A DNA stretch of 32,000 nucleotides. Origin: Candidatus Brocadia sp. Lineage in GTDB: Bacteria; Planctomycetota; Brocadiia; Brocadiales; Brocadiaceae. Under the pieces are notes generated by a model. It was given only the letters and a program-made list of their open reading frames with translations. It did not search any database and was not told the origin of the DNA. Position numbers and translations under genes: made by a program. Shown one piece after another: positions 1 to 27,177 of the stretch (positions are counted from its first letter, which is position 1; each line of letters begins with the position of its first letter). The stretch spans positions 4,014,274-4,046,273 of the forward strand of contig CP091279.1 of the NCBI GenBank assembly GCA_021650915.1. The letters run 5' to 3'.

Positions 1-1
1 T

Positions 2-298: not shown

Positions 299-358
299 TA
301 GTTCAGGTCACCAAGGCACAAAGTCAGGAAGTAAAAATGTAATTGAGGGACTTCATAT

Positions 359-1036: not shown

Positions 1037-1076
1037 GTCGCTGCAAAGTTCGGATTTTTAACCTTTTGGATTCGGA

Positions 1077-2138: not shown

Positions 2139-2291
2139 ACCGGTTGTAGTCAGAAACAGCATACAAAGATTCATTTCTCTGCGTTTTCCGCGCGTTCTGC
2201 AGTGCACTCTTACGAAAAAGAGTGGTTGGAGGTGGTAAGGCAGGGAGCAAAAAGCTTGAAATTCCTGTATATAATTTATGTCAAACTACTT

Positions 2292-5974: not shown

Positions 5975-7908
<1,934 letters not shown>

Positions 7909-8064
7909 TTAAAAAACAGCATAAATATTTTACTCGACAAAACGAGAGCCATGTTTTAATATATGGCTATAACTCTGCTCATAGTTCCTCGTTTCGTGTT
8001 TCGTGTTTCCCAAAAGGAACGCAACAAGTGTTTGCAAACATTCAAAGCTCAAATCAAGGTATCC

Positions 8065-8889: not shown

Positions 8890-8975
8890 TGGTGTGGACC
8901 GGCACATTGTAGAATGATATATTTTGTTTATCTCTGTTTTTGCGCATGTTGATTGTATTCAAGAGGAGCCATGTC

Positions 8976-9701: not shown

Positions 9702-9761
9702 AACGACACAAGCACGGCTCATTCTTCCTTCTCAACAAGGCTGATCAATAGGAAAGGTTTC

Positions 9762-9781
9762 CCTTTGCCTTCTGGCAAAGG
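9762..9781 (+). terminator. Weak hairpin downstream of the TPR gene
   Basis: CCTTTGCC-TTCT-GGCAAAGG (8-bp stem, tetraloop), followed by TCTTGTAT. The T-tract is poor. Confidence 0.3.
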
Positions 9782-10209
9782 TCTTGTATGTGATAATAAC
9801 AGCATACCACCATTCCTTTAAATAACTCCCCCAAGAAAGCAATTTTCTTCTTTGTCTCTCCTTCAACTTAAGGATATAATATCCCCATAATCAGTAGTAT
9901 AACATTACGGTGCAAAATCTTTTTTTCTCAGATTTTACCCTCCTTGGCTTTGTTATAAGCGCTCAGCGGAACGACAGGAAGGTGTAATTGCGGTCGTGCT
10001 GTGCTATAACCCCTAAGGTATTTTTGACATTTTTAGCAAAATATTATGGATGAAATTGACTCAGTCAGGGTTTAGAACCCCGACTGAGTTGACTCATGAA
10101 TTCCATGCTTTGGATTTTGTTTTTCGCACTCGTACGGCTTCAGCATTATGTCTCTCGTTGTGGTTATAACCACGCTGATTTGAGAGATGGCTAGATATGG
10201 AGATTTTGC

Positions 10210-13200
10210 ATGCCTCTTGATGGAGTCTGGCTCTCGGATGAACCCCTCTGGTACAAGGACGTCATTATCTATGAGCTTCACGTACGGGCATTTTACGACA
10301 GCAATGCCGATGGGATTGGAGATTTTGAGGGGCTTATAGAAAAACTGGATTATCTGGAGAATCTTGGCATAACAGCCATATGGCTTCTTCCTTTTTATCC
10401 ATCCCCCCTTAAAGATGATGGATATGATATCGCAAATTATTTTGGCATCCATCCTGATTATGGCTTATTGCGGGACTTTAAGGAGTTTATCAGGGAGGCG
10501 CACAGAAGGGGTATGCGGATTATTACCGAACTTGTTCTGAATCATACCTCAGAGCGGCATCCCTGGTTTCAGATGGCAAGAAAGGCAAAACCCGGTTCTG
10601 CATTGCGAAATTTTTATGTCTGGAGTGACACACCTGAAAAATATAAAGAGGCAAGGGTCATTTTCAAGGACTTCGAATTATCCAACTGGACGTGGGATCC
10701 TGAGACGAAGGCTTACTACTGGCACCGATTTTTCACCCATCAACCCGATTTGAATTATGACAACCCCTTGGTGCAGAAGAAAATCATGAGGGTTATTAAT
10801 TATTGGCTGGATATGGGCGTTGATGGATTTCGCCTGGATGCCGTGCCCTATCTTTTTGAAAGGGAAGGAACCAATTGTGAAAGTTTACCGGAGACCCACA
10901 GATTCTTAAAAGAACTCCGGGCATACCTGGATCGTAATTTTAAAAACCGGATGCTTCTTGCGGAGGCGAATCAGTGGCCTGAGGATGCGGTAACCTATTT
11001 TGGAAACGGAGACGAGTGTCACATGGCATTCCATTTTCCCCTTATGCCCAGGTTATTCATGGCAATCTGGACCGAGGACAGGTTTCCCATAATTGATATC
11101 CTTGAACAAACCCCCCCAATCCCAGACACGTGCCATTGGGCATTTTTTTTAAGAAACCACGATGAACTTACCCTGGAGATGGTAAGTGATGAAGAAAAAG
11201 ATTATATGTACCGGGTCTATGCGAAAGACCCTGTGGCAAGGATCAATCTCGGCATACGGAGACGGCTTGCCCCCCTTCTCGGAAATAACCGGCGAAAGGT
11301 GGAAATCATGAATATCCTGCTTTTCTCTCTCCCGGGCACTCCCATTGTTTATTACGGTGATGAAATTGGAATGGGAGATAATTACCATCTTGGCGACAGA
11401 AACGGCGTGAGAACACCTATGCAATGGAATGTCGACAGAAACGCTGGTTTTTCCCGCGCAAATCCCCAGAAACTCTATCTCCCTCTTATTATCGACCCGG
11501 AATATCATTACGAAGCCGTTAACGTTGAAAATCAGGAAAAGAATCAGGCTTCCCTGCTCTGGTGGATGCGCAGGGTCATCGCCATGAGAAAACGTTTTAA
11601 GGCATTTGGAAGAGGAACGACTGAATTCTTATTTCCCGACAACCCAAAAGTGCTGGCATTTATCCGGCAGTATCATAACGAGGTCATCCTTGTCATTATT
11701 AATCTCTCGCGTTTTTCACAAGCAGTTGAGCTTGATCTTTCAAAATTTTCCGGATTTCAGCCAGAAGACATCTTTAGCGGAAATAAATTCCCACCAATAA
11801 AGGATACCCCCTATCTCTTTACCCTAGGCCATTACGATTATTTCTGGTTTGTCCTGAAAAAAGAGGAGGAGACCGCACCGTTTCGCAAAATACGACACAT
11901 TCCTCATATCAGTGGAAACTGGAAAACCCTCTTTATGGGAAAAACGAAAGAACTGCTGGAAAGGGAAATCTTACCGCCTTATATGAAAATGTGCAGATAC
12001 TATGGCGGTAGAATACAGGAAATGCGGGAAATAAGAATTACCGAGACTATAAAAATCAAAGAAAATACCTGCGATGCACAGATGCTTATTCTTGAAATAA
12101 AATACCTTACGGGACTATCGGACACCTGTTTTCTTCCCCTTTCCTTTTCATCCGGCGATACGGCGGAAAGCGTCGTCATAGAAAATCCACATGCCGTTGT
12201 TGCACACTTGAAGAATGACAATGCCGAAGGAATCATTTATGATAGTATCTACGATGAAGGATTCCGGAGTTATCTGCTGCGGATGTTTGTCAGAAGACAT
12301 AGGCACCGCGGACTTCATGGCGAACTTATCACCACTACCGGGAAGACGATAAAAAAACGCAAAGAGGATGAACTCTTATCGTTGAAATCCCACGTTATTA
12401 AGGGAGAACAAAATAACTCGTCCCTCCTTTACGGCAAGGAACTCATTTGCAAACTTTACCGATGCCTTGATGAAGGGATAAATCCCGAACTGGAAATGTG
12501 TGAGTTCCTTACCGATAAGATTCCTTTTCGCCACGTCCCTCCGCTTTTGGGTGCAATCGAATACCGGCGGCACGGAGGTGAATTCCTAACGGTAGGCATG
12601 CTTCAGACCTTTGTCCCGAATGAAGGTGATGCGTGGACCTATACCCTTGACTGGATAGGAAGATACCTGGGCAGAATCCTTGCCAGAAAAAATGAACTTC
12701 AGGGAATATCCCCCGTTCCCCCTTCTTTTTTTGATCCTGCTCTTCAAGAGACACCCCTCCTATTTCAGGAATTGATCGGTGGTATATATCTTGAAATGGT
12801 ATCCCTGCTGGGCAAAAGGACTGCCGAACTTCATCTGGCGCTCGCATCGGAAACGGAGGACACAAATTTTGCGCCAGAGCCGTTCACCGCATCCTATCAA
12901 AGGTCACTCTATCAATCTATGCAGTCTCGCACAAAAAGGATTTTTGCGCTCCTTAGAAAAAACACGAAAAATATCCCTGATCATCTTAAGGGATTAACGA
13001 ACGACACCCTCAATCTTGAAAAGGAAATCATGAGTCGTTTCAAGGCCATTTGTACCCGGAAGATATCCGCGGCAAAGATAAGGATCCATGGGGATTATCA
13101 CCTGGGACAGGTACTCTTCACGGGAAATGATTTTGCCATTATCGACTTTGAAGGAGAACTTGCGCGAAACGTAAGTGAAAGAAGATTAAAGAGGTCGCCA

Positions 13201-13533
13201 TTACGAGATGTGGCAGGCATGATACGTTCCTTTCATTACGCCACCCATGCCACCCTTTTAAAATCTGCCCGCACGAATCCGGAAGAGACCCCGGCGCTGG
13301 AACCCTGGCTAGATTTATGGTACCGGTATGTGGGAGGCGTCTTTTTACGGTCATACCTTGAAACGGCTGGAAATGCATCTTTTATTCCAAAGAGCAGAGA
13401 AGATCTTGATATTATGCTCAGGGCATATCTCCTGGAAAAAGCTGTTTATGAGATTGGACATGAAATAAACAATCGTCCGGAATGGATTATGATACCCTGC
13501 AGGGGAATTAAGCATCTGCTTGAGACCAATTAA
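10210..13533 (+). CDS. treS: Trehalose synthase / maltokinase fusion (TreS-Mak/Pep2)
   Basis: The N-terminal GH13 TreS domain has WYKDVIIYELHVRAFYDSNADGIGDFEGL, GVDGFRLDAVPYL, LLAEANQWPED and FLRNHDELTLE. The C-terminal maltokinase domain has IHGDYHLGQVLFTGNDFAIIDFEGE. GGAGA lies upstream of the ATG. 1107 aa, typical of such fusions. Confidence 0.9.
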   Translation: MPLDGVWLSDEPLWYKDVIIYELHVRAFYDSNADGIGDFEGLIEKLDYLENLGITAIWLLPFYPSPLKDDGYDIANYFGIHPDYGLLRDFKEFIREAHRRGMRIITELVLNHTSERHPWFQMARKAKPGSALRNFYVWSDTPEKYKEARVIFKDFELSNWTWDPETKAYYWHRFFTHQPDLNYDNPLVQKKIMRVINYWLDMGVDGFRLDAVPYLFEREGTNCESLPETHRFLKELRAYLDRNFKNRMLLAEANQWPEDAVTYFGNGDECHMAFHFPLMPRLFMAIWTEDRFPIIDILEQTPPIPDTCHWAFFLRNHDELTLEMVSDEEKDYMYRVYAKDPVARINLGIRRRLAPLLGNNRRKVEIMNILLFSLPGTPIVYYGDEIGMGDNYHLGDRNGVRTPMQWNVDRNAGFSRANPQKLYLPLIIDPEYHYEAVNVENQEKNQASLLWWMRRVIAMRKRFKAFGRGTTEFLFPDNPKVLAFIRQYHNEVILVIINLSRFSQAVELDLSKFSGFQPEDIFSGNKFPPIKDTPYLFTLGHYDYFWFVLKKEEETAPFRKIRHIPHISGNWKTLFMGKTKELLEREILPPYMKMCRYYGGRIQEMREIRITETIKIKENTCDAQMLILEIKYLTGLSDTCFLPLSFSSGDTAESVVIENPHAVVAHLKNDNAEGIIYDSIYDEGFRSYLLRMFVRRHRHRGLHGELITTTGKTIKKRKEDELLSLKSHVIKGEQNNSSLLYGKELICKLYRCLDEGINPELEMCEFLTDKIPFRHVPPLLGAIEYRRHGGEFLTVGMLQTFVPNEGDAWTYTLDWIGRYLGRILARKNELQGISPVPPSFFDPALQETPLLFQELIGGIYLEMVSLLGKRTAELHLALASETEDTNFAPEPFTASYQRSLYQSMQSRTKRIFALLRKNTKNIPDHLKGLTNDTLNLEKEIMSRFKAICTRKISAAKIRIHGDYHLGQVLFTGNDFAIIDFEGELARNVSERRLKRSPLRDVAGMIRSFHYATHATLLKSARTNPEETPALEPWLDLWYRYVGGVFLRSYLETAGNASFIPKSREDLDIMLRAYLLEKAVYEIGHEINNRPEWIMIPCRGIKHLLETN

Positions 13534-13559
13534 ATCGTTTGAGATGAAAGAGAAAATCT

Positions 13560-15473
13560 ATGAATACCCTAAGCCTCTTTACGGATCACGATATCTATCT
13601 CTTCAAAGAAGGGAACCATTTTCAGCTTTACAACAAACTCGGCTCCCACAGGATTGCAACAAGAGGAACCACAGGCGTCTATTTCGCCGTGTGGGCGCCG
13701 AATGCGGAAAGGGTCTCGGTCACGGGTGATTTTAATCAATGGAATAAGGCGTCTCATCCGCTAACACCACGGAAAGACGAATCCGGTATCTGGGAAGGAT
13801 TCATTGAAGGCATTGAAAACGGGACGGCGTATAAATATCATATCACTTCCCGCTATCAAAACTATACGGCGGATAAAGGCGACCCATTCTCTCTGCGCTG
13901 GGAAACCCCTCCTAAAACTGCCTCTCTGGTATGGGATCTGAATTATGCATGGAATGACCGTGCATGGATGCATACCCGCCACAAAGCCAATTCATTGGAG
14001 GCTCCGTTTGCTATTTATGAAATCCATCTTGGTTCCTGGAGGCGAGTTCCTGAAGAAGGGAATAGATATCTCACCTATAAAGAGATGGCTCACCAGCTCG
14101 CTGATTATCTGAATGAACTGGGATTTACCCACGTTGAACTGCTACCGATTACCGAGCATCCCTTTTATGGTTCGTGGGGGTATCAGTCCGTGGGATACTT
14201 TGCGCCCACGAGCCGGTACGGAACTCCTCAGGATTTTATGTATTTCGTTGATTATCTGCATCAACGCGGAATCGGAGTTATTCTTGACTGGGTGCCTTCT
14301 CACTTTCCCGCGGATGAGTATGGTCTCGTCTATTTTGACGGCACACACCTCTATGAACACGCAGACCCAAAAAAGGGCTTTCATCCGGACTGGAAGAGCT
14401 ACATTTTTAATTATGGCAGAAATGAAGTAAGGAATTTTCTTATCAGCAGCGCCTTCTTTTGGCTTGATAAATACCATATAGACGGTCTCAGGGTAGATGC
14501 CGTGGCTTCGATGCTTTATCTCGACTACTCAAGAAAAGACGGGGAATGGATACCAAACCAATACGGAAGCAGAGAAAATTTAGAGGCAATAGCCTTTATA
14601 AAAAGATTTAACGAGGCCGTCTATGAAACCTACCCGGACGTTCAAACGATTGCTGAAGAATCAACCGCATGGCCTATGGTGTCTAAACCAACCTATGTCG
14701 GCGGCCTCGGATTTGGTATGAAATGGAACATGGGTTGGATGCACGATACCCTGGCATTTTTTACCAAAGACCCGCTCTACCGAAAGTACCACAACAATCA
14801 ACTTACCTTTAGCATCATGTACGCATTCTCCGAAAACTTCGTCCTCCCCTTTTCCCATGATGAAGTTGTCCACGGGAAAGGGTCTTTGGTGGGAAAAATG
14901 CCGGGTGACGAGTGGCAGCGGTGCGCGAATCTCAGGCTCCTCTTTGGATATCTGTACGGACATCCAGGGAAAAAACTTCTTTTTATGGGAGATGAATTTG
15001 CACAGGTAAAGGAATGGCACCATGATGAGAGCCTGGAATGGCACGTGTTACAATACCCCTTTCACGCGGGCGTTCAAAGATGGGTCAGGGATTTGAATCA
15101 TCTTTACAGAAGCAAGCCGGCCTTGTACGAACGGGATTTTTGTTTCGACGGGTTCGAGTGGATAGACTTTCATGATTGGGAATGCAACGTTATCAGCTTC
15201 ATAAGAAAGGGAAATGCTGCGGATGATGTCATTCTTGTGATAAGCAACTTTACCCCCATACTGCGGCATAATTATCGCGTGGGCGTCCCGCTGGGTGGCT
15301 ATTGGAAAGAGGCATTAAACAGCGATGCAACTATCTATGGGGGTGGCGGACAGGGAAATTGTGGTGGAGCGGATGCGTCACCGGTACCGGCGCACGGAAG
15401 AGCCCATTCCCTTTCTCTTACCCTCCCTCCCCTGGGAATCCTCTTCCTGAAGTATGAAGGCAGAACTCGCTGA
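13560..15473 (+). CDS. glgB: 1,4-alpha-glucan branching enzyme
   Basis: [42 protein letters not shown] and [12 protein letters not shown]. Confidence 0.92.
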
Positions 15474-17947
15474 TGGACAGATATATCTGCATTCACGGAC
15501 ATTTCTATCAACCACCGCGTGAAAATCCCTGGCTGGAGGCTATCGAATTACAGGATTCCGCCTTGCCATACCATGACTGGAACGAGAGGATAACCTCAGA
15601 ATGTTATTCCCGCAATGCGGCATCCCGGATTTTGGACGGTGACGGACGCATCAAAGAAATCGTCAGTAATTACACCCGAATAAGCTTTAATTTCGGCCCT
15701 ACCCTCCTTTCCTGGATGGAGAAATATGCCCCAGGCATATACCAGGCCATACTCGATGCAGACAGAAAAAGCAGGGAGTGGCGTTCCGGTCATGGAAACG
15801 CAATTGCGCAGGTTTACAATCATATCATCATGCCCCTTGCCAATACCCGTGATAAACGCACCCAGATCATCTGGGGAATCAGGGATTTTGAGCACCGGTT
15901 TCAGCGCTTTCCTGAAGGCATGTGGCTTTCGGAAACGGCAGTCGACCTGGAAACACTGGATATTATGGCTGAGCAAGGCATACAGTTCACCCTCCTCTCA
16001 CCCCATCAGGCATTGCGGGTAAGAAAAATAGGCTCGGAAAAGTGGAAAGACGTAAGTGGCGGGCGCATTGACCCTACAAGAGGGTACCTCTGTAAACTGC
16101 CGTCAGGGAGGGCAATATATATTTTTTTTTACGATGGCCCCATATCTCGGGCGATAGCATTTGAAAAATTGCTGAACGGAGGAGAGCATTTTGCCCATCG
16201 GTTGTTAAGCGGTTTCTCAGATACGCGAAAATGGCCTCAAATCCTTCATGTTGCCACCGACGGAGAGTCGTATGGTCATCACCACCGGCATGGAGATATG
16301 TCCCTTGCCTTTGCCCTTCATTATATCGAGTCCCGGGGGCTGGCGCGGCTGACAAATTACGGAGAATACCTCGAAAAAAACCCCCCAGTGCATGAAGTTG
16401 AAGTCCTCAGTAATTCCTCCTGGAGTTGTGTCCACGGCATAGAGCGGTGGAAAGGCAACTGTGGATGCAATTCTGGCGGGCATCCCGAATGGAACCAGGA
16501 ATGGCGCACCCCAATCCGCAACGCCTTTGACTGGCTGAGAGATCAGATGGTGATAAAATACGAACAAAAGGCAAAAAAATATCTGAAAGACCCCTGGCGG
16601 GCAAGAGATGAATATATCACCCTTCTCCTGAACCGCTCAGCGGATCAGGTACACCAATATTTTGAACGGCACACGGTGAACGCCCTCGGCACAGAAGAAA
16701 TCATTTGCATGCTTGAATTGCTCGAAATCCAAAGAAACGCACTGCTGATGTATACCAGTTGCGGCTGGTTTTTTGATGAGCTTTCAGGGATTGAAACTCT
16801 GCAGACCATCCAATACGCCGGAAGGGCAATTCAACTGTCAGAAAAAATATTTGGTTACAGCATAGAAAATACCTTTTTGGAAAAACTTTCACAGGCAAAA
16901 AGCAATATCGCTGAACAGAAAGACGGCGCGCATCTTTATGAAAAATTCGTTAAGCCAGCCATGATCGACACCAAAAAGGTCGGGGTGCACTATGCCGTGA
17001 GCTCGATTTTCGAAGATTACCCGGAACGCACCAGAATTTACTGCTTTACGGTTACCAGAGAGGATTATCATCGGGAAGAGGCCGGGAGAATAAAGATTGC
17101 CGTGGGGCGGGTTTCCATCAGGTCTGAAATAATCAAAGAAACCGAACGTTTAAGCTTCTGTGTTTTGCATCTCGGCAATCATGATTTTAGCGGAGGCGTA
17201 TGTGCTTTTCCCGGAGACGATGCGTATCAGTCAATGAGAGACGAGATGATGGCGTCCTTTGAAAAGGGAGCCTTTGCCGTCATGGTAAGACTGATGGATA
17301 AACATTTTGGCATGCACAACTATTCACTCAAACATCTTTTCAAAGATGAACAACGAAAGATCGTACATCAGGTCATCCGATCAACCATTGATGAATTTGA
17401 AGAGACCTATCGCAGTATGTATGAGAACAATCGCATCCTGATGAGGTTTCTGCAGGAGACAGGTATGCCCATACCAAGCGTTTTTCGCACCGCCGCTGAG
17501 TTTACCCTGAACCAGGATTTAAAAAAAGCATGTGCAGAAGAAAAGGGTCTTAACAGGATACAGGGCATTCTGCATGACATGAAAAAATGGGATATCCCCG
17601 TGGACGCCTTAGATCACGAATTCGCACTTCGACGACTAATCGAGGCGTTAATGGATGAATTGCAGGAGAGGCCATCTGATTTTTCCCTGCTTCAAAGGAT
17701 AGAGCGAAAACTGCATCTCTTCCTTGCGTTACCTTTCGAGATCAATCTCTGGCACGTGCAAAATGTTTATTACGAGATGGCAAAGACCATCTATAAAACA
17801 TTTCTGCCCAAGGCAAAATACGGCGACCCAGATACCGTTCGTTGGATAGAATTGTTTAAACAGATTGGGTACAAATTGTTCTTCAATGTGCCGGCTATGC
17901 TGCCTGACGCCTCAGACGAACATTTCCATGCACGGGGAACTGAATGA
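15473..17947 (+). CDS. Glycoside hydrolase family 57 protein with long C-terminal extension (DUF3536-like)
   Basis: ICIHGHFYQPPRENPW, GMWLSETAVD (nucleophile Glu region) and HVATDGESYGHH (acid/base Asp region). Its ATG overlaps the glgB TGA (TGATG). Confidence 0.85.
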   Translation: MDRYICIHGHFYQPPRENPWLEAIELQDSALPYHDWNERITSECYSRNAASRILDGDGRIKEIVSNYTRISFNFGPTLLSWMEKYAPGIYQAILDADRKSREWRSGHGNAIAQVYNHIIMPLANTRDKRTQIIWGIRDFEHRFQRFPEGMWLSETAVDLETLDIMAEQGIQFTLLSPHQALRVRKIGSEKWKDVSGGRIDPTRGYLCKLPSGRAIYIFFYDGPISRAIAFEKLLNGGEHFAHRLLSGFSDTRKWPQILHVATDGESYGHHHRHGDMSLAFALHYIESRGLARLTNYGEYLEKNPPVHEVEVLSNSSWSCVHGIERWKGNCGCNSGGHPEWNQEWRTPIRNAFDWLRDQMVIKYEQKAKKYLKDPWRARDEYITLLLNRSADQVHQYFERHTVNALGTEEIICMLELLEIQRNALLMYTSCGWFFDELSGIETLQTIQYAGRAIQLSEKIFGYSIENTFLEKLSQAKSNIAEQKDGAHLYEKFVKPAMIDTKKVGVHYAVSSIFEDYPERTRIYCFTVTREDYHREEAGRIKIAVGRVSIRSEIIKETERLSFCVLHLGNHDFSGGVCAFPGDDAYQSMRDEMMASFEKGAFAVMVRLMDKHFGMHNYSLKHLFKDEQRKIVHQVIRSTIDEFEETYRSMYENNRILMRFLQETGMPIPSVFRTAAEFTLNQDLKKACAEEKGLNRIQGILHDMKKWDIPVDALDHEFALRRLIEALMDELQERPSDFSLLQRIERKLHLFLALPFEINLWHVQNVYYEMAKTIYKTFLPKAKYGDPDTVRWIELFKQIGYKLFFNVPAMLPDASDEHFHARGTE

Positions 17948-19440
17948 ACAGAAGGAGCGGCATATTACTTCATATTACCTCCCTTTCGGCTCCCCACGGT
18001 GTGGGAGATTTCGGTGAAACAGCTTACCAATTTGTCGACTTTCTTGCCGAAACCAGGCAGTCTTTGTGGCAAATCCTCCCTTTAAATCCCACCTCCATCG
18101 TATACGGAAACAGCCCTTATAGCTCTAATTCAGCCTTTGCGGGAAATCATACCTTGATAAGCCTTGATCTCCTGATCCAGGACGGTATCCTCTCAAAATC
18201 TGATATGAAAGATCAGCCAACCTTTCTTCATGATTTGGTTGACTATGATATCGTTACTCCCTTTAAAGAGAAAATGCTTCGGGTAGCATACCACAATGTT
18301 CGCCACACGCTGGAAAAGAATGGGGAATTTGAGAAGTTTTGTGCCGAAAATGCCCACTGGCTTGAGGACTATACCCTGTTTGTAGCCCTGAAAGAGAACT
18401 TTCATGGCGTTGCCTGGTATGACTGGCCTGAAGGCTTACGGCACAGGAGAGAGGACGTCCTGCAAGACCGGAGAAATAGCCTGCGCGACAGAATACTGAT
18501 GGAAAAGTTTTTCCAATTCCTCTTTTTCCGGCAGTGGTTTTCTCTGAAAAAATACTGCAACTCAAAGAACATACAGATCATCGGTGATATTCCTATCTAT
18601 GTAACCGACGACAGCGCCGATGTATGGGCGAAACCTGAGATCTTTAAACTGGATGATACCAGCAAACCTCTGTACATCGCAGGAGTTCCGCCTGATTATT
18701 TCAGCGCCACAGGACAACGATGGGGAAACCCGGTTTATAACTGGGGTATCCTCAAAGATACGGGATACTCGTGGTGGCTGAGGCGCATCGAATATAACCT
18801 GAAACTGTATGATATTATCAGACTCGACCACTTCAGAGGTTTCGTTTCCTACTGGGAAATTCCGGCCGGTGAAAAGACCGCAATCAACGGGAAGTGGGTG
18901 GATGCACCGGTAAAGGACTTCTTTAATATCCTGTACCGGCATTTCCCAAGCCTTCCCATTATTGCCGAAGACCTGGGGACGATAACACCTGACGTAAGAG
19001 AAATTATGAGTATGTTTGGAATTCCGGGCATGAAGGTGCTCCTCTTTGCCTTTGGAGACGATTTGCCGGTCAATCCGTATATCCCCCATAACCACACGCC
19101 ATCCTGTATTGTGTACACGGGAACCCACGATAACAACACGGTGAAAGGCTGGTTTAAACAAGATGCAACCACGGAAGACAAAAAAAGAATGCACAGATAC
19201 CTGGGAAGGGAAGTTACTGAAGACACGATTCATCGCGAAATGATCCGGCTGGCGATGATGTCTGTCGCAACGATGGTGGTAATGCCCATGCAGGATGTGC
19301 TTGGTCTGGGAGAGGAATCGAGGATGAACCTGCCTTCAACTTCCAAAAACAATTGGAGGTGGCGGCTCTCACCGGAACACCTTACCCCTGCTCTCAAACA
19401 AGAGCTAACGGAAACAACGACCATCTACGGCAGGGGATGA
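17944..19440 (+). CDS. malQ: 4-alpha-glucanotransferase (amylomaltase, GH77)
   Basis: GILLHITSL, IIGDIPIYV, RLDHFRGF, IIAEDLG and YTGTHDNNT. Its ATG overlaps the GH57 stop (ATGA). Confidence 0.92.
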   Translation: MNRRSGILLHITSLSAPHGVGDFGETAYQFVDFLAETRQSLWQILPLNPTSIVYGNSPYSSNSAFAGNHTLISLDLLIQDGILSKSDMKDQPTFLHDLVDYDIVTPFKEKMLRVAYHNVRHTLEKNGEFEKFCAENAHWLEDYTLFVALKENFHGVAWYDWPEGLRHRREDVLQDRRNSLRDRILMEKFFQFLFFRQWFSLKKYCNSKNIQIIGDIPIYVTDDSADVWAKPEIFKLDDTSKPLYIAGVPPDYFSATGQRWGNPVYNWGILKDTGYSWWLRRIEYNLKLYDIIRLDHFRGFVSYWEIPAGEKTAINGKWVDAPVKDFFNILYRHFPSLPIIAEDLGTITPDVREIMSMFGIPGMKVLLFAFGDDLPVNPYIPHNHTPSCIVYTGTHDNNTVKGWFKQDATTEDKKRMHRYLGREVTEDTIHREMIRLAMMSVATMVVMPMQDVLGLGEESRMNLPSTSKNNWRWRLSPEHLTPALKQELTETTTIYGRG

Positions 19441-19942
19441 TGTAAAAACGAGGGTCTGTAGGAACAAGAAACAACGGACAATGGTGATGTATCTTGTCTG
19501 ATACCAGAACGGGATATTAGGTAAAACTCTTGGTGATTATCTCGGTGGTATATCAGGTGCAGCAATTATCGTGAACGATAACCATAATGAGCGAAGAACT
19601 CCTGCGAAATATAAAACGGAATAATACGATAGCAACCTTGAAGAGGCAACAATGACTGAGCGCACCGGCACAGTGGTCGTTTCGCCGCACCCTGTGGAGT
19701 GATTGGCTATGTGTTATTCTGTTAATGTTCCTCCGATGGACATGCCTTTTTGTATCCGTCCATTTACTATTGTCGCAAAATCGACGCCTCTGTTCGTCGA
19801 AGACGCTTATCATTCTTGAATCAGGAAAAGTAGTAGATGTCTGCCCAAAAGCAATACCATGGTTTTTTGATTTGTTTTTGCCTTACGGGGACCCCAATCA
19901 AAATAACAACGCACTCTTTCACTCCTGCATATATTATACACA

Positions 19943-20049
19943 TATTAATCGTCTCATAATAGAACACACATTAAGCTGTCCGTTTAGCGCTTCAATACTG
20001 GAGAAGGAAAGCATACGACGAATCAATACAATTATGAGACCCTTAATAA
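19943..20049. repeat. 107-bp direct repeat, copy 1 (left border of the catalase island)
   Basis: 106/107 identical to 23270-23376. It carries internal terminal inverted repeats: GTCTCATAAT at 19951-19960 versus ATTATGAGAC near its right end. Weaker similarity extends about 16 bp to the left. Confidence 0.9.
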
Positions 20050-20109
20050 CGCCCCGCATAACCAGGCACTGTCGCACGATGCACGGCGAAAGCCCGCCAA
20101 GTGCAGATG

Positions 20110-21381
20110 TTAGTCGGAATCCTTATCTTTCTGACCGGCCGGGAACAACAGGCTCCTGAACCTCAGGGCGCCAAATCCAAAACCAGCTATCAGTCCGATC
20201 ACGGCACACGTAGTTATGAGTCTTACAGAGCTGAGATTCAGCCCAAAGATGGCGTTTGCCCAGGATGTCAAAAGAAAGAGAGCTGCAAACGCTGCTGTGG
20301 TGACTAGCCCCGAGTAGACTCCGAAGTCCTTCTTTGTTGGTCGAGCCAGACGTTCCAGGTTCCTGACCTGGTTAGCGACCTGCTCGGTGAAGCGCACCAT
20401 CGCTGTCGCCTGTGGCCCAGCCTTCGCAAGCGTTTCGCCCGCGAGATGGATCTTGTTTCGGAGCGTGCTTAATCCTGGAAGCGCCGTTGTAAAGCTGGAG
20501 TCGAAGACCTTTTTCATAATACGCGCAAGCTCCGGTATGGCTTCCAAAAACTGACTTACCCCCGTAGCCAATACCGATGCGATTCGAACCGGTTCAGACA
20601 TCCCCTCTACTTGACGCAACAGATCTGAGGCGCTCCTTGCATTGGCGTTAACCTCTGCAGCGTTGGCGACTATCCGATCGTATTCGAACTGGTTACTATC
20701 GCTGATCGAACGGAAAAAGTCGTAGAACGCTCGGTAAAGATGGGCATAACCTCTAAATGCAAGACGCTCAGGCCGGCCTTCGGTGTAGTAAACATCGGCA
20801 ACGTTGTTGGCTGCTTTCGATGCTTCCTCAATCAGTGTTCGACCCGTCGCAAGATCGAGCTGCTGCAGCGCCAGCAGTGATGCAATCAGCAGCATCTCGG
20901 GTTTCATGTGGTCGACAAGCGGTTTGTATTTGCTGCTAAACGTCCCCGCTTTGTTAAGATAGACCTCTACCGCTTGCAGACGATCAAACGCCCGCGTAAT
21001 ATTCATCGCCCTAACGTCTAGCACACTTTGTGCGTACGCTCCCAGGCCGACAGAGATATCACGCGCATGCGTTTGCCCAAGTTGATCGAACCCCGATGCG
21101 GCTCGATCCAGCAGATCAACGGCCACCACGAAGTCACCTCCCCGAAAGGCGACGTTCACCGCTTGGGCAAAATACCACACTGACTGGAGAGCCGCTTTCA
21201 GCGCATCGCGATCCTCTGTGGCTTTGACATGGTCCAGTTCCTGTAGCTTCTCCTCGGCGAAGGTCTGTAAGGTGTCAGGATCGGTGTCAAACGCGGCGTT
21301 CAGAGCATCGTCAATGAGTGCTTGCGCGGACTTGGAAACTACGCTGATCTCTCCTGGCTTTCCGTGGTTATTTTCAGACAT
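20110..21381 (-). CDS. Hypothetical helical protein with C-terminal two-TM hairpin (unknown family)
   Basis: GC-rich ORF. ATG 21381 is preceded by GAGGAGG 6 nt upstream; the ORF track's GTG 21420 is less likely. The C-terminal hydrophobic segments are VYSGLVTTAAFAALFLLTSWANAIFG and LITTCAVIGLIAGFGFGALRF. I recognise no motif. Confidence 0.65.
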   Translation of the reverse strand: MSENNHGKPGEISVVSKSAQALIDDALNAAFDTDPDTLQTFAEEKLQELDHVKATEDRDALKAALQSVWYFAQAVNVAFRGGDFVVAVDLLDRAASGFDQLGQTHARDISVGLGAYAQSVLDVRAMNITRAFDRLQAVEVYLNKAGTFSSKYKPLVDHMKPEMLLIASLLALQQLDLATGRTLIEEASKAANNVADVYYTEGRPERLAFRGYAHLYRAFYDFFRSISDSNQFEYDRIVANAAEVNANARSASDLLRQVEGMSEPVRIASVLATGVSQFLEAIPELARIMKKVFDSSFTTALPGLSTLRNKIHLAGETLAKAGPQATAMVRFTEQVANQVRNLERLARPTKKDFGVYSGLVTTAAFAALFLLTSWANAIFGLNLSSVRLITTCAVIGLIAGFGFGALRFRSLLFPAGQKDKDSD

Positions 21382-21659
21382 CTTGTCCTCCTCGTTGTAA
21401 AAATAGAACTTCTGTTTCACCTCTGCTGCAACCGCCTTCCGTACCGACTCGCTCTGACGTCCGGCTAATTCCCGGCATCAGCGGCGCTGAGCGCCGTCCG
21501 TTACAACCAGTTAGTTGTCTCGGATTTTGAAAACGGTAGCGCCAATCCCTTATGGTCGGCCTGTGCGGGGGATAAACCACCCGCGCTACGTATTTTGCTT
21601 CATGCCGATTGTATAGAAAGGTACAAATTTTTCAAAAAACTACCTTGTTATCCTGTCTC

Positions 21660-23114
21660 TTATTTCTTTATCTCACTCATCGGAATGCCCATCGCCTTGG
21701 CAAGGCCCTCGCCGTAAGCCAGATCGGCTTTGAGACAATTACCAATGTGGCGAACCTTGATCTCCTTGGGCACGTTACCCATGGCACGGGCGGTGTTATC
21801 GAAGAGCGTCTGTTTCTGCGTGTCGTTTATCAGGCGGAAGAGGCGTCCCGGCTGGGTATAGTGGTCGTCATCTTGCGGGTAGCGGTCCGCGGCGCCATCA
21901 AGGGCTAGAGGCGGTTCGCGTAAATCAGGGTTGTCTTGCCATTCATTGTAGCTGTTGGGATCGTAGCCAGGCGTTCCGCCCTGATTGCCGTCGACCCGCA
22001 TCGCTCCGTCGCGGTGGTACATGTTTACCGGGCAACGCGGACGGTTGACGGGGATCTGGTGGTGGTTGACACCAAGGCGGTAGCGCTGAGCATCGCCATA
22101 GGAAAAGAGTCGTCCCTGTAGCATCTTGTCCGGAGAAAAGCCTATGCCTGGGACCACATTGGCAGGGTTAAAGGCCGACTGTTCGACTTCGGCAAAATAG
22201 TTCTCCGGGTTCTTATTGAGCTCGAGAATGCCAACTTCGAGGAGCGGGTAGTCCTTGTGGTACCAGACCTTGGTCAGGTCAAAGGGATTGTACGGCATCT
22301 TGGCGGCGTCTTTTTCATGCATAACCTGGATGAACAGCTTCCATCGCGGAAATTCGCAACGCTCAATCGTCTCGTAGAGATCACGCTGGTGACTCTCGCG
22401 ATCTTTGCCGATGACTGCCTCCGCTTCTGCGTCGCTAAGGTTCTTGATGCCCTGCTGAGTGTGGAAGTGGAACTTCACCCAAAAGCGCTCGTTCCTCGCG
22501 TTGATAAGGCTGAACGTGTGGCTCCCGAACATGTGCATGTGCCGATAGCTTGTCGGAATGCCGCGGTCGCTCATCGTGATAGTGATCTGGTGTAATGCCT
22601 CGGGCAGCGACGTCCAGAAATCCCAGTTGTTCTTAGCGCTACGAAGATTGGTGCGGGGATCGCGCTTCACCGCATGGTTGAGACCAGGGAAACGTAGCGG
22701 ATCGCGCAGAAAGAAAACCGGGGTGTTATTACCAACGAGATCCCAGTTGCCCTCCTCGGTGTAGAACTTGATCGCCGTGCCACGGATATCGCGCTCGGCG
22801 TCAGCCGCGCCGCGTTCGCCGGCTACCGTTGAGAAGCGTAGGAAAAGGTCTGTCCTCTTGCCAATCTGCGAGAATATTTTCGCCCTGGTGTACTTGGTGA
22901 TGTCGCAGGTCACCGTAAAGATGCCATAGGCGCCTGAGCCCTTGGCGTGCATGCGGCGTTCGGAAATCACCTCGCGATCGAAGTGTGCGAGCTTCTCGAG
23001 AAACCAAACATCCTGAAGCAACTGTGGTCCTCGCGGCCCAGCAGTCATCACATTTTGGTTGTCTGCCACGGGCGCCCCGGCGGCGGTTGTCAGTTTCTTC
23101 TTTTCGTCATTCAC
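21660..23114 (-). CDS. katA: Monofunctional heme catalase (small-subunit, clade 3, KatA-like)
   Basis: [58 protein letters not shown] and [17 protein letters not shown] 23114 is preceded by AAGGAG, giving a typical 484 aa. The longer track ORF from 23207 lacks an SD. Confidence 0.9.
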
Positions 23115-23224
23115 TTTTATTCTCCTTTTGCAGTTTGATTGTACAGCTAACGTTTGAGCACAACGGCGGCCCGTCTGAGCCGTCCGCTGGAACGAATTGT
23201 TGGACATCTATCCGCTACAAAGGA

Positions 23225-23392
23225 CTAGTGTGCAGACATATTAATTACAAATTATATATTGTGGGCAATTATTAATCGTCTCATAATAGAACACACATTA
23301 AGCTGTCCGTTTAGCGCTTCAATATTGGAGAAGGAAAGCATACGACGAATCAATACAATTATGAGACCCTTAATAATATGTCTGTATACTAG
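23225..23392. mobile_element. 168-bp MITE containing 107-bp repeat copy 2 (23270-23376)
   Basis: Terminal inverted repeats CTAGTGTGCAGACATATTAATTA (23225-23247) versus the reverse complement of TAATAATATGTCTGTATACTAG (23371-23392), 20/23 matching. Both ends begin and end with CTAG. No ORF. Confidence 0.7.
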
Positions 23393-23588
23393 CAACCCCT
23401 GTCACAAAAGCCTTCTTATAGGCAACCCCTCTTTCTGACCCTATAACCCCTAACCCGAACGAGTCGGAAAAGTTTTGTGTTTTAGTAACTTGCAAACGTA
23501 GTATACAATAATAAGCGAATAGTTATTTTCACCCACTCGTTCGTGTTCGTCAGAAGAAAACGGATTTCTTCACAATAAGGGATTATCT

Positions 23589-24114
23589 ATGAAGCTTATC
23601 ACAGAGACTCACGCGGAGCATATTCGAGGCACTCTTTCATGCTATGACCGTATCATTATTCAAGGCACCTTGCCCCCTTTTTGTCATGCAAAGGGTATGA
23701 CATCATTTCTGTATGGGGAAAAAAATCCGTATCTTTGACTACCCGCAATTTGCTCAAGGCTTGCGGGACGAATTGATTGCGCACGCCAAAAAGATCGCCA
23801 GCGAGAATAACCTGAGTATCCAATATCTCCCGAAAAAGAACTTTCGCCAGGAAGAATGTATTGCAGAAGTCCTGAAAAGACACGGCACCCATCCTGGTCT
23901 TGTCCACATCTTTTCAGTACAAGAATCCTGTGCCTCCTATACTCCATGGCACGACAAGAATACCCACAAGACTTTTCTCAAATACGATCCCAGTGGGAGA
24001 TGCCTTCACTATTATTTCTATTTTATTCATGAAATTTTAGGCCTGTGTTATGTCCGTGTGCCAACATGGATTCCTTTTCGTCTTCAAGTCTATTTTAACG
24101 GTCATAACTGGTTA
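23589..24114 (+). pseudogene. Conserved hypothetical gene, frameshifted and 3'-truncated
   Basis: MKLITETHAEHIRGTLSCYDRIIIQGTLPPFCHAKGMTSFLYG runs in one frame, then KKIRIFDYPQFAQGLRDE...LCYVRVPTWIPFRLQVYFNGHNWL continues in frame +1. The switch is at the G4A7 run 23715-23725. Protein-like sequence ends at about 24114, where the CAGAAAGGG repeat begins. Confidence 0.55.
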
Positions 24115-24150
24115 GGGGAACAGAAAGGGTCACCCAGGAACAGAAAGGGG

Positions 24151-24309
24151 TCAAATCTTTATTGTTGACAAATCTATCTCAACTCTTTGGATCATCTGGG
24201 AAAGATGCTTGTTGCCATTCAGTCTTTCCCGTAATCGTTTTCGTCCCACACTCACGGTACTATAGTCTACCCCCATTATTTCCCCTATCTCAGTTCCGCT
24301 GAGTCCGCC
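24151..24309 (-). pseudogene. 3' remnant of an HTH-containing, mobile-element-associated ORF
   Basis: It encodes GGLSGTEIGEIMGVDYSTVSVGRKRLRERLNGNKHLSQMIQRVEIDLSTIKI*, an HTH of DnaA-C / sigma70-region-4 style. There is no N-terminal part. About 90% identical over its shared part to 26522-26626. The stop lies inside the repeat motif. Confidence 0.55.
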
Positions 24310-24372
24310 AAGAACAGAAGGGGTCAAATCTTTATGAAGCTCAGCGGAATAGCGGGCAGGTGGAGCGCCTTG

Positions 24373-24630
24373 TTAGACAATATTTGATTCATATTGATAG
24401 ACAGGAACCTGAATAATTTTTGTTGGTTTCTTTTCCTCTTGTAGAAGCTGATCAATGGCCTTAGCTACTGCTGGTTTTATCACTTTTTCTCCACACTGTG
24501 TACAAACACCCACAGGAACATTCTCAAAAATGAATAACTTTCCCTTCCATCTAATTTCACGATGCGTGAGTTGTTCCGCGACAGCCCCCCCGCAATAGAA
24601 ACAATCACTGTATTTATATTCCTTTACCAT
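24373..24630 (-). CDS. YgiT-type zinc-finger protein (MqsA-N-like putative antitoxin)
   Basis: CFYCGG...(x27)...CTQCGE zinc ribbon with the VPVGVC pattern. GGAGA lies 10 nt upstream. Located immediately downstream of the DUF4258 gene. Confidence 0.75.
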   Translation of the reverse strand: MVKEYKYSDCFYCGGAVAEQLTHREIRWKGKLFIFENVPVGVCTQCGEKVIKPAVAKAIDQLLQEEKKPTKIIQVPVYQYESNIV

Positions 24631-24672
24631 AGGTCAATGTCTCCATTATCGATTTCTTGTGTATGGAGCTCT

Positions 24673-24960
24673 CTATTTTGGCATAGTTGGGATATAAACG
24701 GTAACGAGAATCAAATGTCCAGAAGGACTCTTCCCACAAACAACATGAACTGGTATTCCATCATGGGTAAATCCAACTGTCAGACAACTTTCACCACGAG
24801 GGTCATTTGGATATTGTTCTAATATTTTACCCTGTGATAAAGCAAATTCCAATTCAGAAATGGTTAAACCATCTGCAATTCGTTCGTCATCTGCGTGAAG
24901 TGATATTTCATAGGTCTGCTTTTCAATTCCATTGCGAATAAAATCAGGTGCTATACTCAT
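24673..24960 (-). CDS. DUF4258-family putative toxin
   Basis: ISLHADDERIADGLTISELEFALSQGKILEQYPNDPRGESCLTVGFTHDGIPVHVVCG....LILVTVY matches the DUF4258 pattern (H....R...R.I........L..G.I.E.YP.D.......L......G.P.HVV). Confidence 0.7.
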   Translation of the reverse strand: MSIAPDFIRNGIEKQTYEISLHADDERIADGLTISELEFALSQGKILEQYPNDPRGESCLTVGFTHDGIPVHVVCGKSPSGHLILVTVYIPTMPK

Positions 24961-24980
24961 TCCGATCTATTTCAATGTTG

Positions 24981-25343
<363 letters not shown>

Positions 25344-25423
25344 AGGTTATTTTATCATTTCATCATTTTTAGTCGAACGATAGAACTGCGCGGCGGCGGA
25401 ACGCCATCCGCACGAGTGACTTG

Positions 25424-25762
25424 TTATGCCCCTATTATCTCATTCAGTCCGTCAACTACCTGTTCCATTTCCTCAGGAGAAACCCTTCCGATTATTTTTC
25501 CAATTCTCTCAACGGAAAGCGTCCGAATCTGGCTTATTTTTGCCCATGACCGTTTGGGTAAATTTGTGGTTTTTAATTCAAGGGTGAGGGGAAATCCCGC
25601 CTTCTGAGGCTGACTGGTTAGAGCTACGGCAATAACTGTCCCTGATCGTTCATTGAATATATCCTGGCTTAAAATTAAAACAGGCCGTAAGCCTGCTTGC
25701 TCACGGCCACGTACGGGGTTTAAATCAGCCCATCTAATGTCGCCCCTCAGTATTCGGGCCAT
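25424..25762 (-). CDS. mazF: MazF/PemK-family endoribonuclease toxin
   Basis: RGDIRWADLNPVRGREQAGLRPVLILSQDIFNERSGTVIAVALTS is the canonical PemK/MazF N-terminal pattern. Confidence 0.88.
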   Translation of the reverse strand: MARILRGDIRWADLNPVRGREQAGLRPVLILSQDIFNERSGTVIAVALTSQPQKAGFPLTLELKTTNLPKRSWAKISQIRTLSVERIGKIIGRVSPEEMEQVVDGLNEIIGA

Positions 25763-25989
25763 TGGTTCAAATCCTCAGTTAAACCTTCCTCCGCCATTGC
25801 TTTTTCAAAGGGTATGTCGAGCTTGGCGCATTCTTTAGCCAAACGAGTGCGTTTAAGACGTTTCAGTTTCTCTTCTACTGCTTCCTGTATTGCCTGACTG
25901 CGGTTTTGAAAAACATGCTCACTAACGAGCCTATCTATGTCTTCAATAAATTGTTCGTCTAATGTAATGGCAATTTTTGTTTTTCTCAT
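25747..25989 (-). CDS. Ribbon-helix-helix (CopG/MazE-like) antitoxin
   Basis: MRKTKIAITLDEQFIEDIDRLVSEHVFQNRSQAIQEAVEEKL has the ribbon-helix-helix (RHH) signature. It overlaps mazF by 16 nt. Confidence 0.8.
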   Translation of the reverse strand: MRKTKIAITLDEQFIEDIDRLVSEHVFQNRSQAIQEAVEEKLKRLKRTRLAKECAKLDIPFEKAMAEEGLTEDLNQWPEY

Positions 25990-26006
25990 AATTTACCTTT
26001 GGTATT

Positions 26007-26035
26007 ACAATATATCATACCTATGGATTTGTCAA
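26007..26035 (-). promoter_or_regulatory. Sigma70-type promoter candidate for the RHH-mazF operon
   Basis: The minus strand reads TTGACA (26035-26030), a 17-nt spacer, then TATTGT (26012-26007), about 18 nt upstream of ATG 25989. Confidence 0.4.
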
Positions 26036-26233
26036 TATTTTTCAAGGCATAACGAGATCAATAAGGAGCGGGGGCAATTGCACGAATGAAAACCAAAACA
26101 GCGTTATTCCCCGTCGTCTTGGTTGAAGTGTTCGACGTTGCTTTCATATGTATTTTTATATGGTCTGAAATCTAATCCGTGTTGCTTTTCTTTCACTAAG
26201 CATTCATAGCGCGGCACCGCCACAACCAAATTT

Positions 26234-26357
26234 CTTTTATGAAAGCGGGGAGATTGCTTCGGAAAAGGCCCTCGCAATGACAGCGACCATGCACTTTGAT
26301 GGCACACGGCACGTTGTCATTGCGAGTGAAGCGAAGCAATCTTTCACTCATAAAAAG
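26234..26357. repeat. Foldback palindromic element (cattgcgag / aagcaatc class)
   Basis: Nested inverted repeats: CTTTTATGA / TCATAAAAAG, AGATTGCTTCG (26251-26261) / CGAAGCAATCT (26332-26342), and CTCGCAATGACA (26271-26282) / TGTCATTGCGAG (26315-26326). Its translation yields the familiar artefact peptide VIASEAKQS. Confidence 0.7.
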
Positions 26358-26651
26358 CGGCATCTCTTGAAAGGGGTTTGTGAAAAAACTTACAAAAAAA
26401 GAAGTTTTTATACAGTAATACTATATTGCGACAAATGGCTCGCAGTCATTGATATGCCAGTCATCAACGACAGGCATTCAAGTGTCCCGAAGCGAGTCAG
26501 AAGGGGTCAAAAATTTGAGAAAAATGCTTGTTGCCTTTCAGTCTTTCCCGTAATCGCTTTCTCCCCACACTCACGGTACTATAGTCTACCCCCATTATTT
26601 CTCCTATCTCAGTTCCGCTGAGTCCGTTAAACCGATAGAACAAGTCTATCG

Positions 26652-27177
<526 letters not shown>

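Follow-up and report, generated by a model that had tools for sequence, protein, structure and literature searches.

A foreign catalase gene beside integron-type attC sites, between two MITE insertions, in Candidatus Brocadia

A GC-rich island between malQ and a run of toxin-antitoxin genes

Here we describe a stretch of 32,000 nucleotides (nt) from an anammox planctomycete, a Candidatus Brocadia sp. that belongs to the Ca. Brocadia fulgida group (assembly GCA_021650915.1, contig CP091279.1, positions 4,014,274 to 4,046,273; 'the window' below means this whole stretch), in which a GC-rich island with a catalase gene lies between two 107-bp direct repeats. The repeats are copies of a miniature inverted-repeat transposable element (MITE), called MITE-A here. 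Just behind an integron recombination site, attC_0, comes the catalase gene; a second such site lies on the same strand. The locus is quite probably an overlap of three unrelated things, namely MITE-A insertions, a catalase gene placed like an integron cassette, and a duplicated module with a gene for a 423-amino-acid (aa) protein. An initial annotation, made from the DNA letters, had noticed the repeats, the island and its two genes; the two attC sites and the mosaic make-up of the island had been overlooked. The features are listed below, neighbouring genes last (MITE-B is a second element, R1 a covariance model of attC sites; both are described further on).

19943-23392: the repeat and catalase feature under study
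19943-20049, plus strand: MITE-A copy 1 (element about 19945-20046, TA on each side; one private mismatch to the family consensus)
20050-21588, minus strand: two-copy module of about 1.54-1.57 kb (leader, gene for the 423-aa protein, MITE-A junction), also found downstream of leuS
20056-20115, strand ambiguous: marginal candidate attC at the island's left edge, overlapping the stop codon of the gene for the 423-aa protein
20110-21381, minus strand: gene for a predicted membrane-anchored, all-helical (TPR-like) protein of 423 aa
21421-21540, minus strand: structured leader of that gene (-28.2 kcal/mol, z = -4.0, 0/200 shuffles as stable)
21608-21635, minus strand: candidate sigma-70-like promoter motif, TTGAAA-16 nt-TACAAT (10/12 consensus positions)
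21660-23114, minus strand: monofunctional haem catalase of the small-subunit type, 484 aa (Pfam Catalase, PF00199, E 1.6e-187; Catalase-rel, PF06628)
23145-23205, minus strand: integron site attC_0, by BLAST to class 1 cassette attCs and by R1
23225-23269, plus strand: left part of MITE-B (97.8% match to MITE-B positions 1-46)
23270-23376, plus strand: MITE-A copy 2 (matches the 21-copy consensus at every position; stands in place of the middle 45 nt of MITE-B)
23376-23392, plus strand: right arm of MITE-B, from alignment with the intact MITE-B of sister genomes
25372-25429, minus strand: second strong attC, by R1; conserved in the sister assemblies L059, L063 and L064
25424-25989, minus strand: toxin-antitoxin cassette, with a ribbon-helix-helix antitoxin (80 aa) and a MazF/PemK toxin (112 aa)
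1-9700: housekeeping genes
10210-19440, plus strand: glycogen operon treS/mak-glgB-GH57-malQ
24151-27168, minus strand: run of small toxin-antitoxin genes
30904-27263: pyruvate:ferredoxin oxidoreductase (PFOR)

Composition sets the island apart from the rest of the window. The GC content of 20050-23224 is 54.5%, against 45.8% in the left and 45.3% in the right flank, and in 40-nt windows the fraction rises from 0.40 to 0.65 at 20050, the first base past the first repeat, and falls from 0.53 to 0.25 at 23220. The initial annotation had placed the switches at 20050 and at about 23224 and had rightly taken the insert for a compositional outlier, although the break is milder than its hand count of about 60% GC had suggested. 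The tetranucleotide distance between the island and the remaining window is 0.396, with no other tile of the same size above 0.247, and each half of the island taken separately is more deviant than all host tiles (0 of 86 reach either value). GC at third codon positions is 0.695 in the catalase gene and 0.45-0.59 in host genes, and codon usage is clearly foreign in the catalase gene (r = 0.58 to pooled host genes, where host genes range over 0.70-0.89) and borderline in the gene for the 423-aa protein (r = 0.70).

The repeats agree at 106 of 107 positions, the sole difference being C/T at repeat position 56, and the insert between them holds two minus-strand genes, the catalase gene and that for the 423-aa protein of no known family, all as first described. 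Gene and domain scans found no tRNA, recombinase or transposase domain across the whole 32,000 nt, in line with the earlier statement that no integrase, transposase or tRNA lies nearby. The island is not a classical genomic island: it comes without an integrase and without a tRNA/tmRNA target, and its direct repeats are MITE copies.

The same arrangement recurs in other assemblies. Contig LAQJ01000278.1 (Ca. Brocadia fulgida, GCA_000987375.1) is 99.99% identical to the window over positions 7945-26297, with both repeat copies present, and independent Logan contigs back the flank-to-repeat and island-to-repeat junctions. Because the island is attached to identical Brocadia flanking genes in five independent assemblies (the window, LAQJ01, MWTE01, JAJTXD01 and CASDLW01), it is not an assembly artefact, and the assembly duplication that had been considered earlier is excluded. 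A repeat-induced misjoin, by which foreign DNA would have been set between two collapsed repeat copies, might be suspected from the way in which short-read unitigs break within the repeats; these breaks lie 26-30 nt into the repeat, as expected with k = 31 at any multicopy element, and in view of the shared joins we regard such a misjoin as practically negligible.

attC sites and cassettes in the window and in related contigs

When positions 23135-23215 were compared by BLAST with 72,556 plasmids, 3834 records gave matches, the best being 81% identical over 61 nt (E 1e-4), directly after blaOXA-10-family genes, and about 73% identical over 67 nt, after aadA1; all matches lie in gene orientation between a cassette open reading frame (ORF) and qacEdelta1. 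The matched plasmid segments are the attC sites of the blaOXA-10 and aadA1 cassettes of class 1 integrons. On the coding (minus) strand, attC_0 spans 60 nt at 23205-23145 and reads GTCCAACAATTCGTTCCAGCGGACGG...CCGTTGTGCTCAAACGTTAGCT. Its R' core, GTTAGCT, occupies 23151-23145, 30 nt ahead of the catalase ATG (23114), with a ribosome-binding site, AAGGAGA, in between.

The same site was returned by a covariance model that contains no window sequence. This model, R1, was built from eight class 1 attCs (aadA1, catB8, aac(6')-IIa, aadB, blaOXA-101, aacA4, dfrA1 and qnrVC1) with the R and L stems as structure; R2 is the iterated model, and the window was searched with R1 on both strands with filters off. 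In the control loci no true attC was missed by R1 (scores of 28-77 bits), and its other matches with E < 0.1 were only the reverse strands of true sites. In the window it returned two minus-strand sites, 25429-25372 (31.9 bits, E 5.4e-5) and 23205-23145 (30.9 bits, E 8.7e-5), and no other site with E < 0.1 in the 64 kb of strand searched.

The second site closes a pair of toxin-antitoxin genes. It begins GCATAAC; the TAA here, which falls within the R'' box, serves the MazF/PemK toxin gene as its stop codon, and the antitoxin gene precedes the toxin gene. The toxin matches NCBIfam MazF (E 2.7e-14), the antitoxin matches MazE/NikR-type ribbon-helix-helix models, and PemK_toxin is recorded at the sister loci; the MazEF pair closed by the attC at 25429-25372 is a textbook toxin-antitoxin cassette. 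The two strong attCs lie 2.2 kb apart on one strand, co-oriented with the catalase gene. A group of clustered attC sites without an integron integrase is termed a CALIN (definitions in bioRxiv 10.1101/2022.09.11.507474), and we applied the term to at least two attC sites within about 4 kb, found by a sequence-plus-structure model, with no integrase nearby. With two same-strand attCs at this spacing and no integrase, the locus is therefore a CALIN by the home-made model R1.

Further cassettes were found in other metagenome contigs that bear MITE-A. R1 matched two sites in contig L042 (39.8 and 20.5 bits) and one in contig L046 (33.7 bits), and the genes flanked by these attCs (DUF4160/DUF2442, an addiction-module antitoxin and RidA) are small and typical of cassettes. 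The RidA (L-PSP) cassette is 96.4% identical between the two contigs over 550 bp (L042:4847-6148; L046:3307-3858). The two copies cease to be homologous at the GTTAA core of the attC, beyond which the flanks are unrelated, and this is the signature of recombination at attC. The attCs are alike in style (YAACAAGTCGYTCCAGC...), as they would be in one cassette pool.

MITE insertions and the duplicated module

MITE-A is about 102 bp long and non-coding (only chance ORFs of 47-59 aa cross it), with terminal inverted repeats (TIRs) of 16-19 nt, TTAATCGTCTCATAAT and ATTATGAGACCCTTAA. Its arms of 20 nt are 90% complementary (23268-23287 and 23358-23377) and the same in all copies. A scan with the two termini yielded 19 further copies in 18 metagenome contigs, all of identical length, with ends TATTAAT...TTAATA and unrelated flanks; the scan demanded exact termini and so favoured well-preserved copies. 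Among the 21 copies the median pairwise difference is 1/107, and 52% of pairs differ at one position at most. Because near-identity is the norm in this family, the 106/107 identity of the window repeats is uninformative. In its size, inverted repeats, non-coding sequence and copy number, MITE-A is a MITE.

Every copy has TA on both sides, an invariant dinucleotide that, without a clean empty site, reads alike as a target duplication or as the end of the element; the sole polymorphic site, that of copy 2, also bears a 45-nt deletion. The invariant flanks fit a TA-duplicating transposase of the IS630/Tc1-mariner type. No parent transposase of MITE-A was identified, and the IS630-family transposase of Ca. 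B. pituitae was rejected for this role, its ends being unrelated. In that species (Ca. Brocadia pituitae AP021856.1) an IS630-family (DDE_3) element lies between the GH57 gene and malQ (L069:8845-9986), with ends unlike either MITE. A scan of species-representative genomes with the MITE-A termini returned no Brocadia record, just elements with related TIRs from other phyla. MITE-like elements of 80-110 bp with a common inner terminal core (CGTCTCATAAT ... ATTATGAGACG) and different interiors occur in Syntrophorhabdales, in metagenome-assembled genomes (MAGs) labelled Deltaproteobacteria, in Methylomonas and in others (L020-L033), several of them at contig ends.

The right-hand repeat is younger than the island. 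Three sister assemblies, UTAMX2 (L059), GCA_021463075.1 (L063) and GCA_949281365.1 (L064), carry the same island between malQ and the toxin-antitoxin/PFOR genes at 99.1-99.8% identity, with the order malQ, MITE-A, the gene for the 423-aa protein, catalase and attC_0 shared with the window. The left MITE-A is present wherever a sister contig reaches it (seen in L063 and L064). The right MITE-A is present in none of the three, and intact MITE-B, an element of 109 bp with CTAG ends and 21-nt inverted arms, occupies that place. Intact MITE-B is found in L059, in L064 and, elsewhere, in L054; at L063:7962-8157 (GCA_021463075.1) MITE-B takes the form of two overlapping tandem copies. The window and LAQJ have MITE-A in place of the central 45 nt of MITE-B; the right MITE-A is thus later than the island and confined to the window/LAQJ lineage, and the left copy is older.

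It follows that the MITE-A bracket is late and incidental, since the sisters carry the island without the right copy. The right MITE-A would have landed within a resident MITE-B, of which 45 nt were lost, and the two window copies would be independent insertions of a family scattered near-identically through genomes of the Ca. Brocadia fulgida group. The initial annotation had described a complete 168-bp MITE on the right and a truncated version of it on the left; both repeats are in fact complete elements of about 102 bp, and because none of the 19 other MITE-A copies has the outer arms of the 168-bp unit, that unit is a one-off nest, the 109-bp element with its central 45 nt replaced by the 107-bp unit. 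One Logan contig (L065, SRR33509043) ends at 20051, the last base of the island, where all other contigs run 29-30 nt into the left MITE-A; this end could mark an allele without the left copy, or low coverage.

An earlier proposal was that the island moved as a MITE-bracketed composite transposon, both MITE-A copies and their cargo being mobilised as a unit by a transposase acting in trans. Two direct, complete and near-identical copies around cargo, with TA at their outer ends, speak for this, as do the MITE-flanked integrons reported from Acinetobacter and Enterobacter. However, their single mismatch equals the family median and 52% of MITE-A pairs are equally close; the TA flanks are universal in MITE-A and therefore cannot mark a composite event; and the right copy lies 64 nt past the island, within another element. 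Moreover, the cargo sits at the same locus in the three sisters, with the left copy only and an intact MITE-B where the right one would be. These sister genomes refute the composite, which we consider very improbable.

The island itself is a mosaic, for the module with the gene for the 423-aa protein is not part of the catalase cassette and is duplicated. In contigs L014 and L066-68, the 3' end of leuS is followed by the module 21588-20050 and 29 nt of MITE-A, with the same junction as in the window. The 62 nt upstream of 21588 (21589-21650, with the promoter motif) are only about 65% alike between the catalase and the leuS context. Four single-nucleotide polymorphisms in the module separate two lineages, not contexts, the window agreeing with L014 and L063/L064/L065 agreeing with L066/L067, and about 47 or more sequencing runs contain unitigs that hold only the module and break off at either end. 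Most simply, every genome would have two module copies, one after catalase and one after leuS, kept identical by gene conversion.

The recurrence of this junction bears on a second proposal made earlier, capture of the island by homologous recombination, in which incoming MITE-A-bearing DNA crossed with a chromosomal MITE-A. The GC-rich DNA does start at the first base past the left copy, and since the junction between module and MITE-A recurs in a second context, after leuS, MITE-A travelled or recombined together with the module. Such an exchange accounts, however, for the left junction and the module only; in the older arrangement the catalase end is bounded by attC_0 and MITE-B, not by MITE-A, and no island-free site retaining MITE-A was found. 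Recombination at MITE-A may thus explain how the module moved, not how the catalase end arose; as a mechanism for the whole island it is not supported, and we hold it to be unlikely.

The protein encoded in the module belongs to no Pfam or NCBIfam family. A word-indexed search gave 12 homologues and a profile search 226 representative clusters, and its exact 436-aa version is annotated in a Candidatus Brocadia sp. genome. Its AlphaFold2 model (predicted local distance difference test score, pLDDT, 84) is a TPR-like solenoid with 16 helices and two C-terminal transmembrane helices, and Foldseek returned only generic TPR-like matches in the PDB, none of them significant (E > 0.02, TM-score 0.2-0.3). 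A 39%-identical homologue lies between minC and minD (L036:10001-11305, GCA_038198935.1), which hints at a membrane or cell-division role. The leader at 21421-21540 forms a closed three-hairpin fold that is not attC-like and matches no Rfam family. Because sites like the promoter motif at 21608-21635 are no more frequent in the region than expected by chance, we treat this motif as putative.

Two observations concern the genes to the right of the MITE nest. The toxin-antitoxin run contains segments, with BrnT/BrnA-like genes and a piece adjoining them, that occur twice at 93-95% identity (24988-25344 with 26686-27169, and 24194-24307 with 26513-26626); one copy of the toxin is degraded. Between the nest and the toxin-antitoxin genes, a frameshift-split ORF (23589-24168; 49 aa and 151 aa), without family assignment, is the sole plus-strand gene of the cluster.

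Origin of the catalase, its route of entry and known counterparts

Homologues of 483-486 aa cover 100% of the catalase from the start at 23114 and so support that start. The public annotation has 515 aa from an ATG at 23207, an extension that crosses the attC site, and the B. fulgida protein is already annotated as KKO18349.1. The best solved relatives are 2isa, 4e37 and 1m85, all of 483-484 aa, the nearest structures being those from Vibrio salmonicida, Pseudomonas aeruginosa (KatA) and Proteus mirabilis; we take these three to be clade 3 catalases, and on that assumption the clade-3 label given at the outset agrees with them and with the Pfam domains.

At 90% identity, the catalase clusters with proteins of Brocadia spp., Syntrophorhabdaceae MAGs and one Actinomycetota MAG. 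Identity to the Syntrophorhabdaceae and Actinomycetota catalases is 86-89% for the protein and about 79% for the DNA, the latter over the coding region only. The catalase gene of a Syntrophorhabdaceae MAG has 53% GC in a locus of 42%, so that this lineage may be a recipient too. We considered the 'Actinobacteria' MAG as a mis-binned Brocadia contig and rejected this, the context being genuinely actinobacterial (sortase, SpaA pilin, 60% GC). Syntrophorhabdaceae hold the closest catalases outside Brocadia, and Syntrophorhabdales hold elements with the inner terminal core of MITE-A.

The island is foreign in composition and absent from the malQ locus of two other Brocadia species. The genes treS-glgB-GH57-malQ are kept in Ca. 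B. pituitae, whose MalQ is 83% identical, and in a second Brocadia species, whose MalQ is 80% identical. In these two species neither the catalase gene nor that for the 423-aa protein lies within 10 kb downstream of malQ, where unrelated genes are found; nucleotide homology to the window ends at 19443 in the first and at 19626 in the second. Everything to the right of malQ differs among the Brocadia species compared. No island-free allele turned up in close relatives, all longer assemblies of the lineage carrying the island (Logan unitigs cannot cross the 107-bp repeat). The suggestion that the island is horizontally acquired oxidative-stress cargo is thus borne out by its outlying composition, by the malQ loci of the two other species and by the similarity of the catalase to Syntrophorhabdaceae and Actinomycetota proteins.

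With a probability of roughly 0.6, the catalase gene entered the lineage in the form of a cassette or of an array fragment, through an integrase acting at attC; its own attC would have been lost, or never kept, when the module joined downstream, and the enzyme would now remove H2O2 for an oxygen-sensitive anammox bacterium. Integrase-mediated entry, the part that the catalase plays in tolerating oxygen and the way in which the module was duplicated are all inferred. The catalase gene has the GTT core of a preceding attC, a short promoterless leader (a scan found no promoter-like site upstream of it on the minus strand) and a ribosome-binding site, as a cassette gene would; the ORF comes without a recognisable 3' attC of its own.

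Several observations weigh against entry as a cassette. No integron integrase was found in the window or within 10 kb in the sister genomes, at loci reaching PFOR and malQ. The attC calls come from R1, a home-made model from eight clinical attCs and not the IntegronFinder model. No convincing 3' attC of the catalase was found, and the strong attC_0 therefore formally belongs to the preceding cassette. The best candidate, 21516-21463 (12.9 bits, E 0.74), was rejected: it disappears under R2, BLAST shows no similarity between it and known attCs, and 31 of 500 shuffles align to attC_0 as well as it does. The site at 20056-20115 is marginal and scores better on the wrong strand (R1 16.6 bits, E 0.12, on the plus strand and 8.7 bits on the minus strand; R2 14.3 bits, E 0.19); it lies in the duplicated module, has no BLAST similarity to plasmid attCs and was not accepted as an established attC. 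BLAST of both candidates against the plasmids gave chance-level matches only, folding gave no signal for attC_0 or for the left-end candidate, and Rfam had no match in 19500-23800 at E up to 5. The Syntrophorhabdaceae and Actinomycetota relatives of the catalase gene lie in ordinary chromosomal contexts without attC, and no donor array is known. Finally, the MITE-A-bearing metagenome contigs are presumably Brocadia, an assignment that follows from the shared MITE and G+C content and is not a demonstrated one.

These points bear on the main rival, ordinary horizontal transfer with the attCs as passive passengers, in which a fragment of a donor array arrived by transformation or conjugation and was fixed by illegitimate recombination, the attCs never having been functional in Brocadia. 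The lack of an integrase in the window and the sister loci, the catalase gene without its own 3' attC, and the rearrangements to the right of malQ in all Brocadia species compared speak for it. Against it stand two strong attCs of the same style on one strand, each correctly placed with respect to its ORFs, and the further attC cassettes in the same MITE-bearing pool, with the RidA cassette in two contexts and its homology ending at the core. We rate passive transfer as rather unlikely and prefer entry by recombination at attC.

A wider reading is possible, though somewhat doubtful: that the B. fulgida group draws on an integron cassette pool, that the catalase, and with it some tolerance of peroxide and oxygen, was delivered as a cassette next to an attC closely related to those of the clinical blaOXA-10 and aadA cassettes, and that cassettes are still exchanged between loci by integrases yet to be discovered or acting in trans from the wastewater community. 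Oxygen sensitivity limits the use of anammox in wastewater treatment; the anammox MAGs of one reactor study are without catalase (PMC9909701), and the B. fulgida lineage has been reported from groundwater that contains as much as 3 mg/L oxygen (PMC8862662). Its foreign catalase, placed as a cassette would be, is thus a testable candidate for how lineages come to differ in oxygen tolerance. MITEs, CALINs and catalases acquired by lateral transfer are familiar; in the library that we searched, no literature linked integron cassettes or attC sites to Brocadia. With this locus, attC cassettes are placed in an anammox planctomycete, and one of their attCs is related to the attCs of clinical resistance cassettes. 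The locus also illustrates that a compositional island can be bracketed by near-identical direct repeats which are not its vehicle; a family identity baseline and sister genomes settle the question fast.

Among known systems, MITE-A resembles the TA-targeting MITEs of IS630/Tc1-mariner type in its length of about 102 bp, its TIRs, its non-coding sequence, its invariant TA and its many near-identical copies at unrelated sites; it differs in having no identified parent transposase. MITE-flanked integrons and integron mobilisation units (IMUs) have reportedly been described in Acinetobacter (439-bp MITEs) and Enterobacter (IMU). The present locus is like these in that cargo associated with attC lies between two direct copies of one MITE; unlike them, the flanking copies are not the vehicle here, since sisters hold the cargo with one copy and the second lies inside MITE-B.

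The closest likeness in layout is to CALINs and single attC sites lacking an integron integrase, SALINs (bioRxiv 10.1101/2022.09.11.507474), with which the locus shares two attCs without intI, co-oriented ORFs and a cluster as small as most CALINs, as well as a toxin-antitoxin cassette with its stop codon in the R'' box. Unlike a CALIN as usually described, it has a catalase gene without a recognisable 3' attC, MITEs in and beside the cluster, an anammox planctomycete as host and attCs that are not IntegronFinder calls. The site attC_0 itself is like the blaOXA-10 and aadA1 attCs in its length of about 60 nt, in its R''/L''/L'/R' layout and in the same unpaired base in the L stem. Its stem is weaker than that of the aadA1 attC (-10.4 kcal/mol, z -0.9, vs -18.3 kcal/mol, z -4.7), and its R' core, GTTAGCT, departs from GTTRRRY at one position, as do those of the aadB and aacA4 attCs. 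The blaOXA-10 and aadA1 attCs adjoin resistance genes, whereas attC_0 adjoins a catalase gene.

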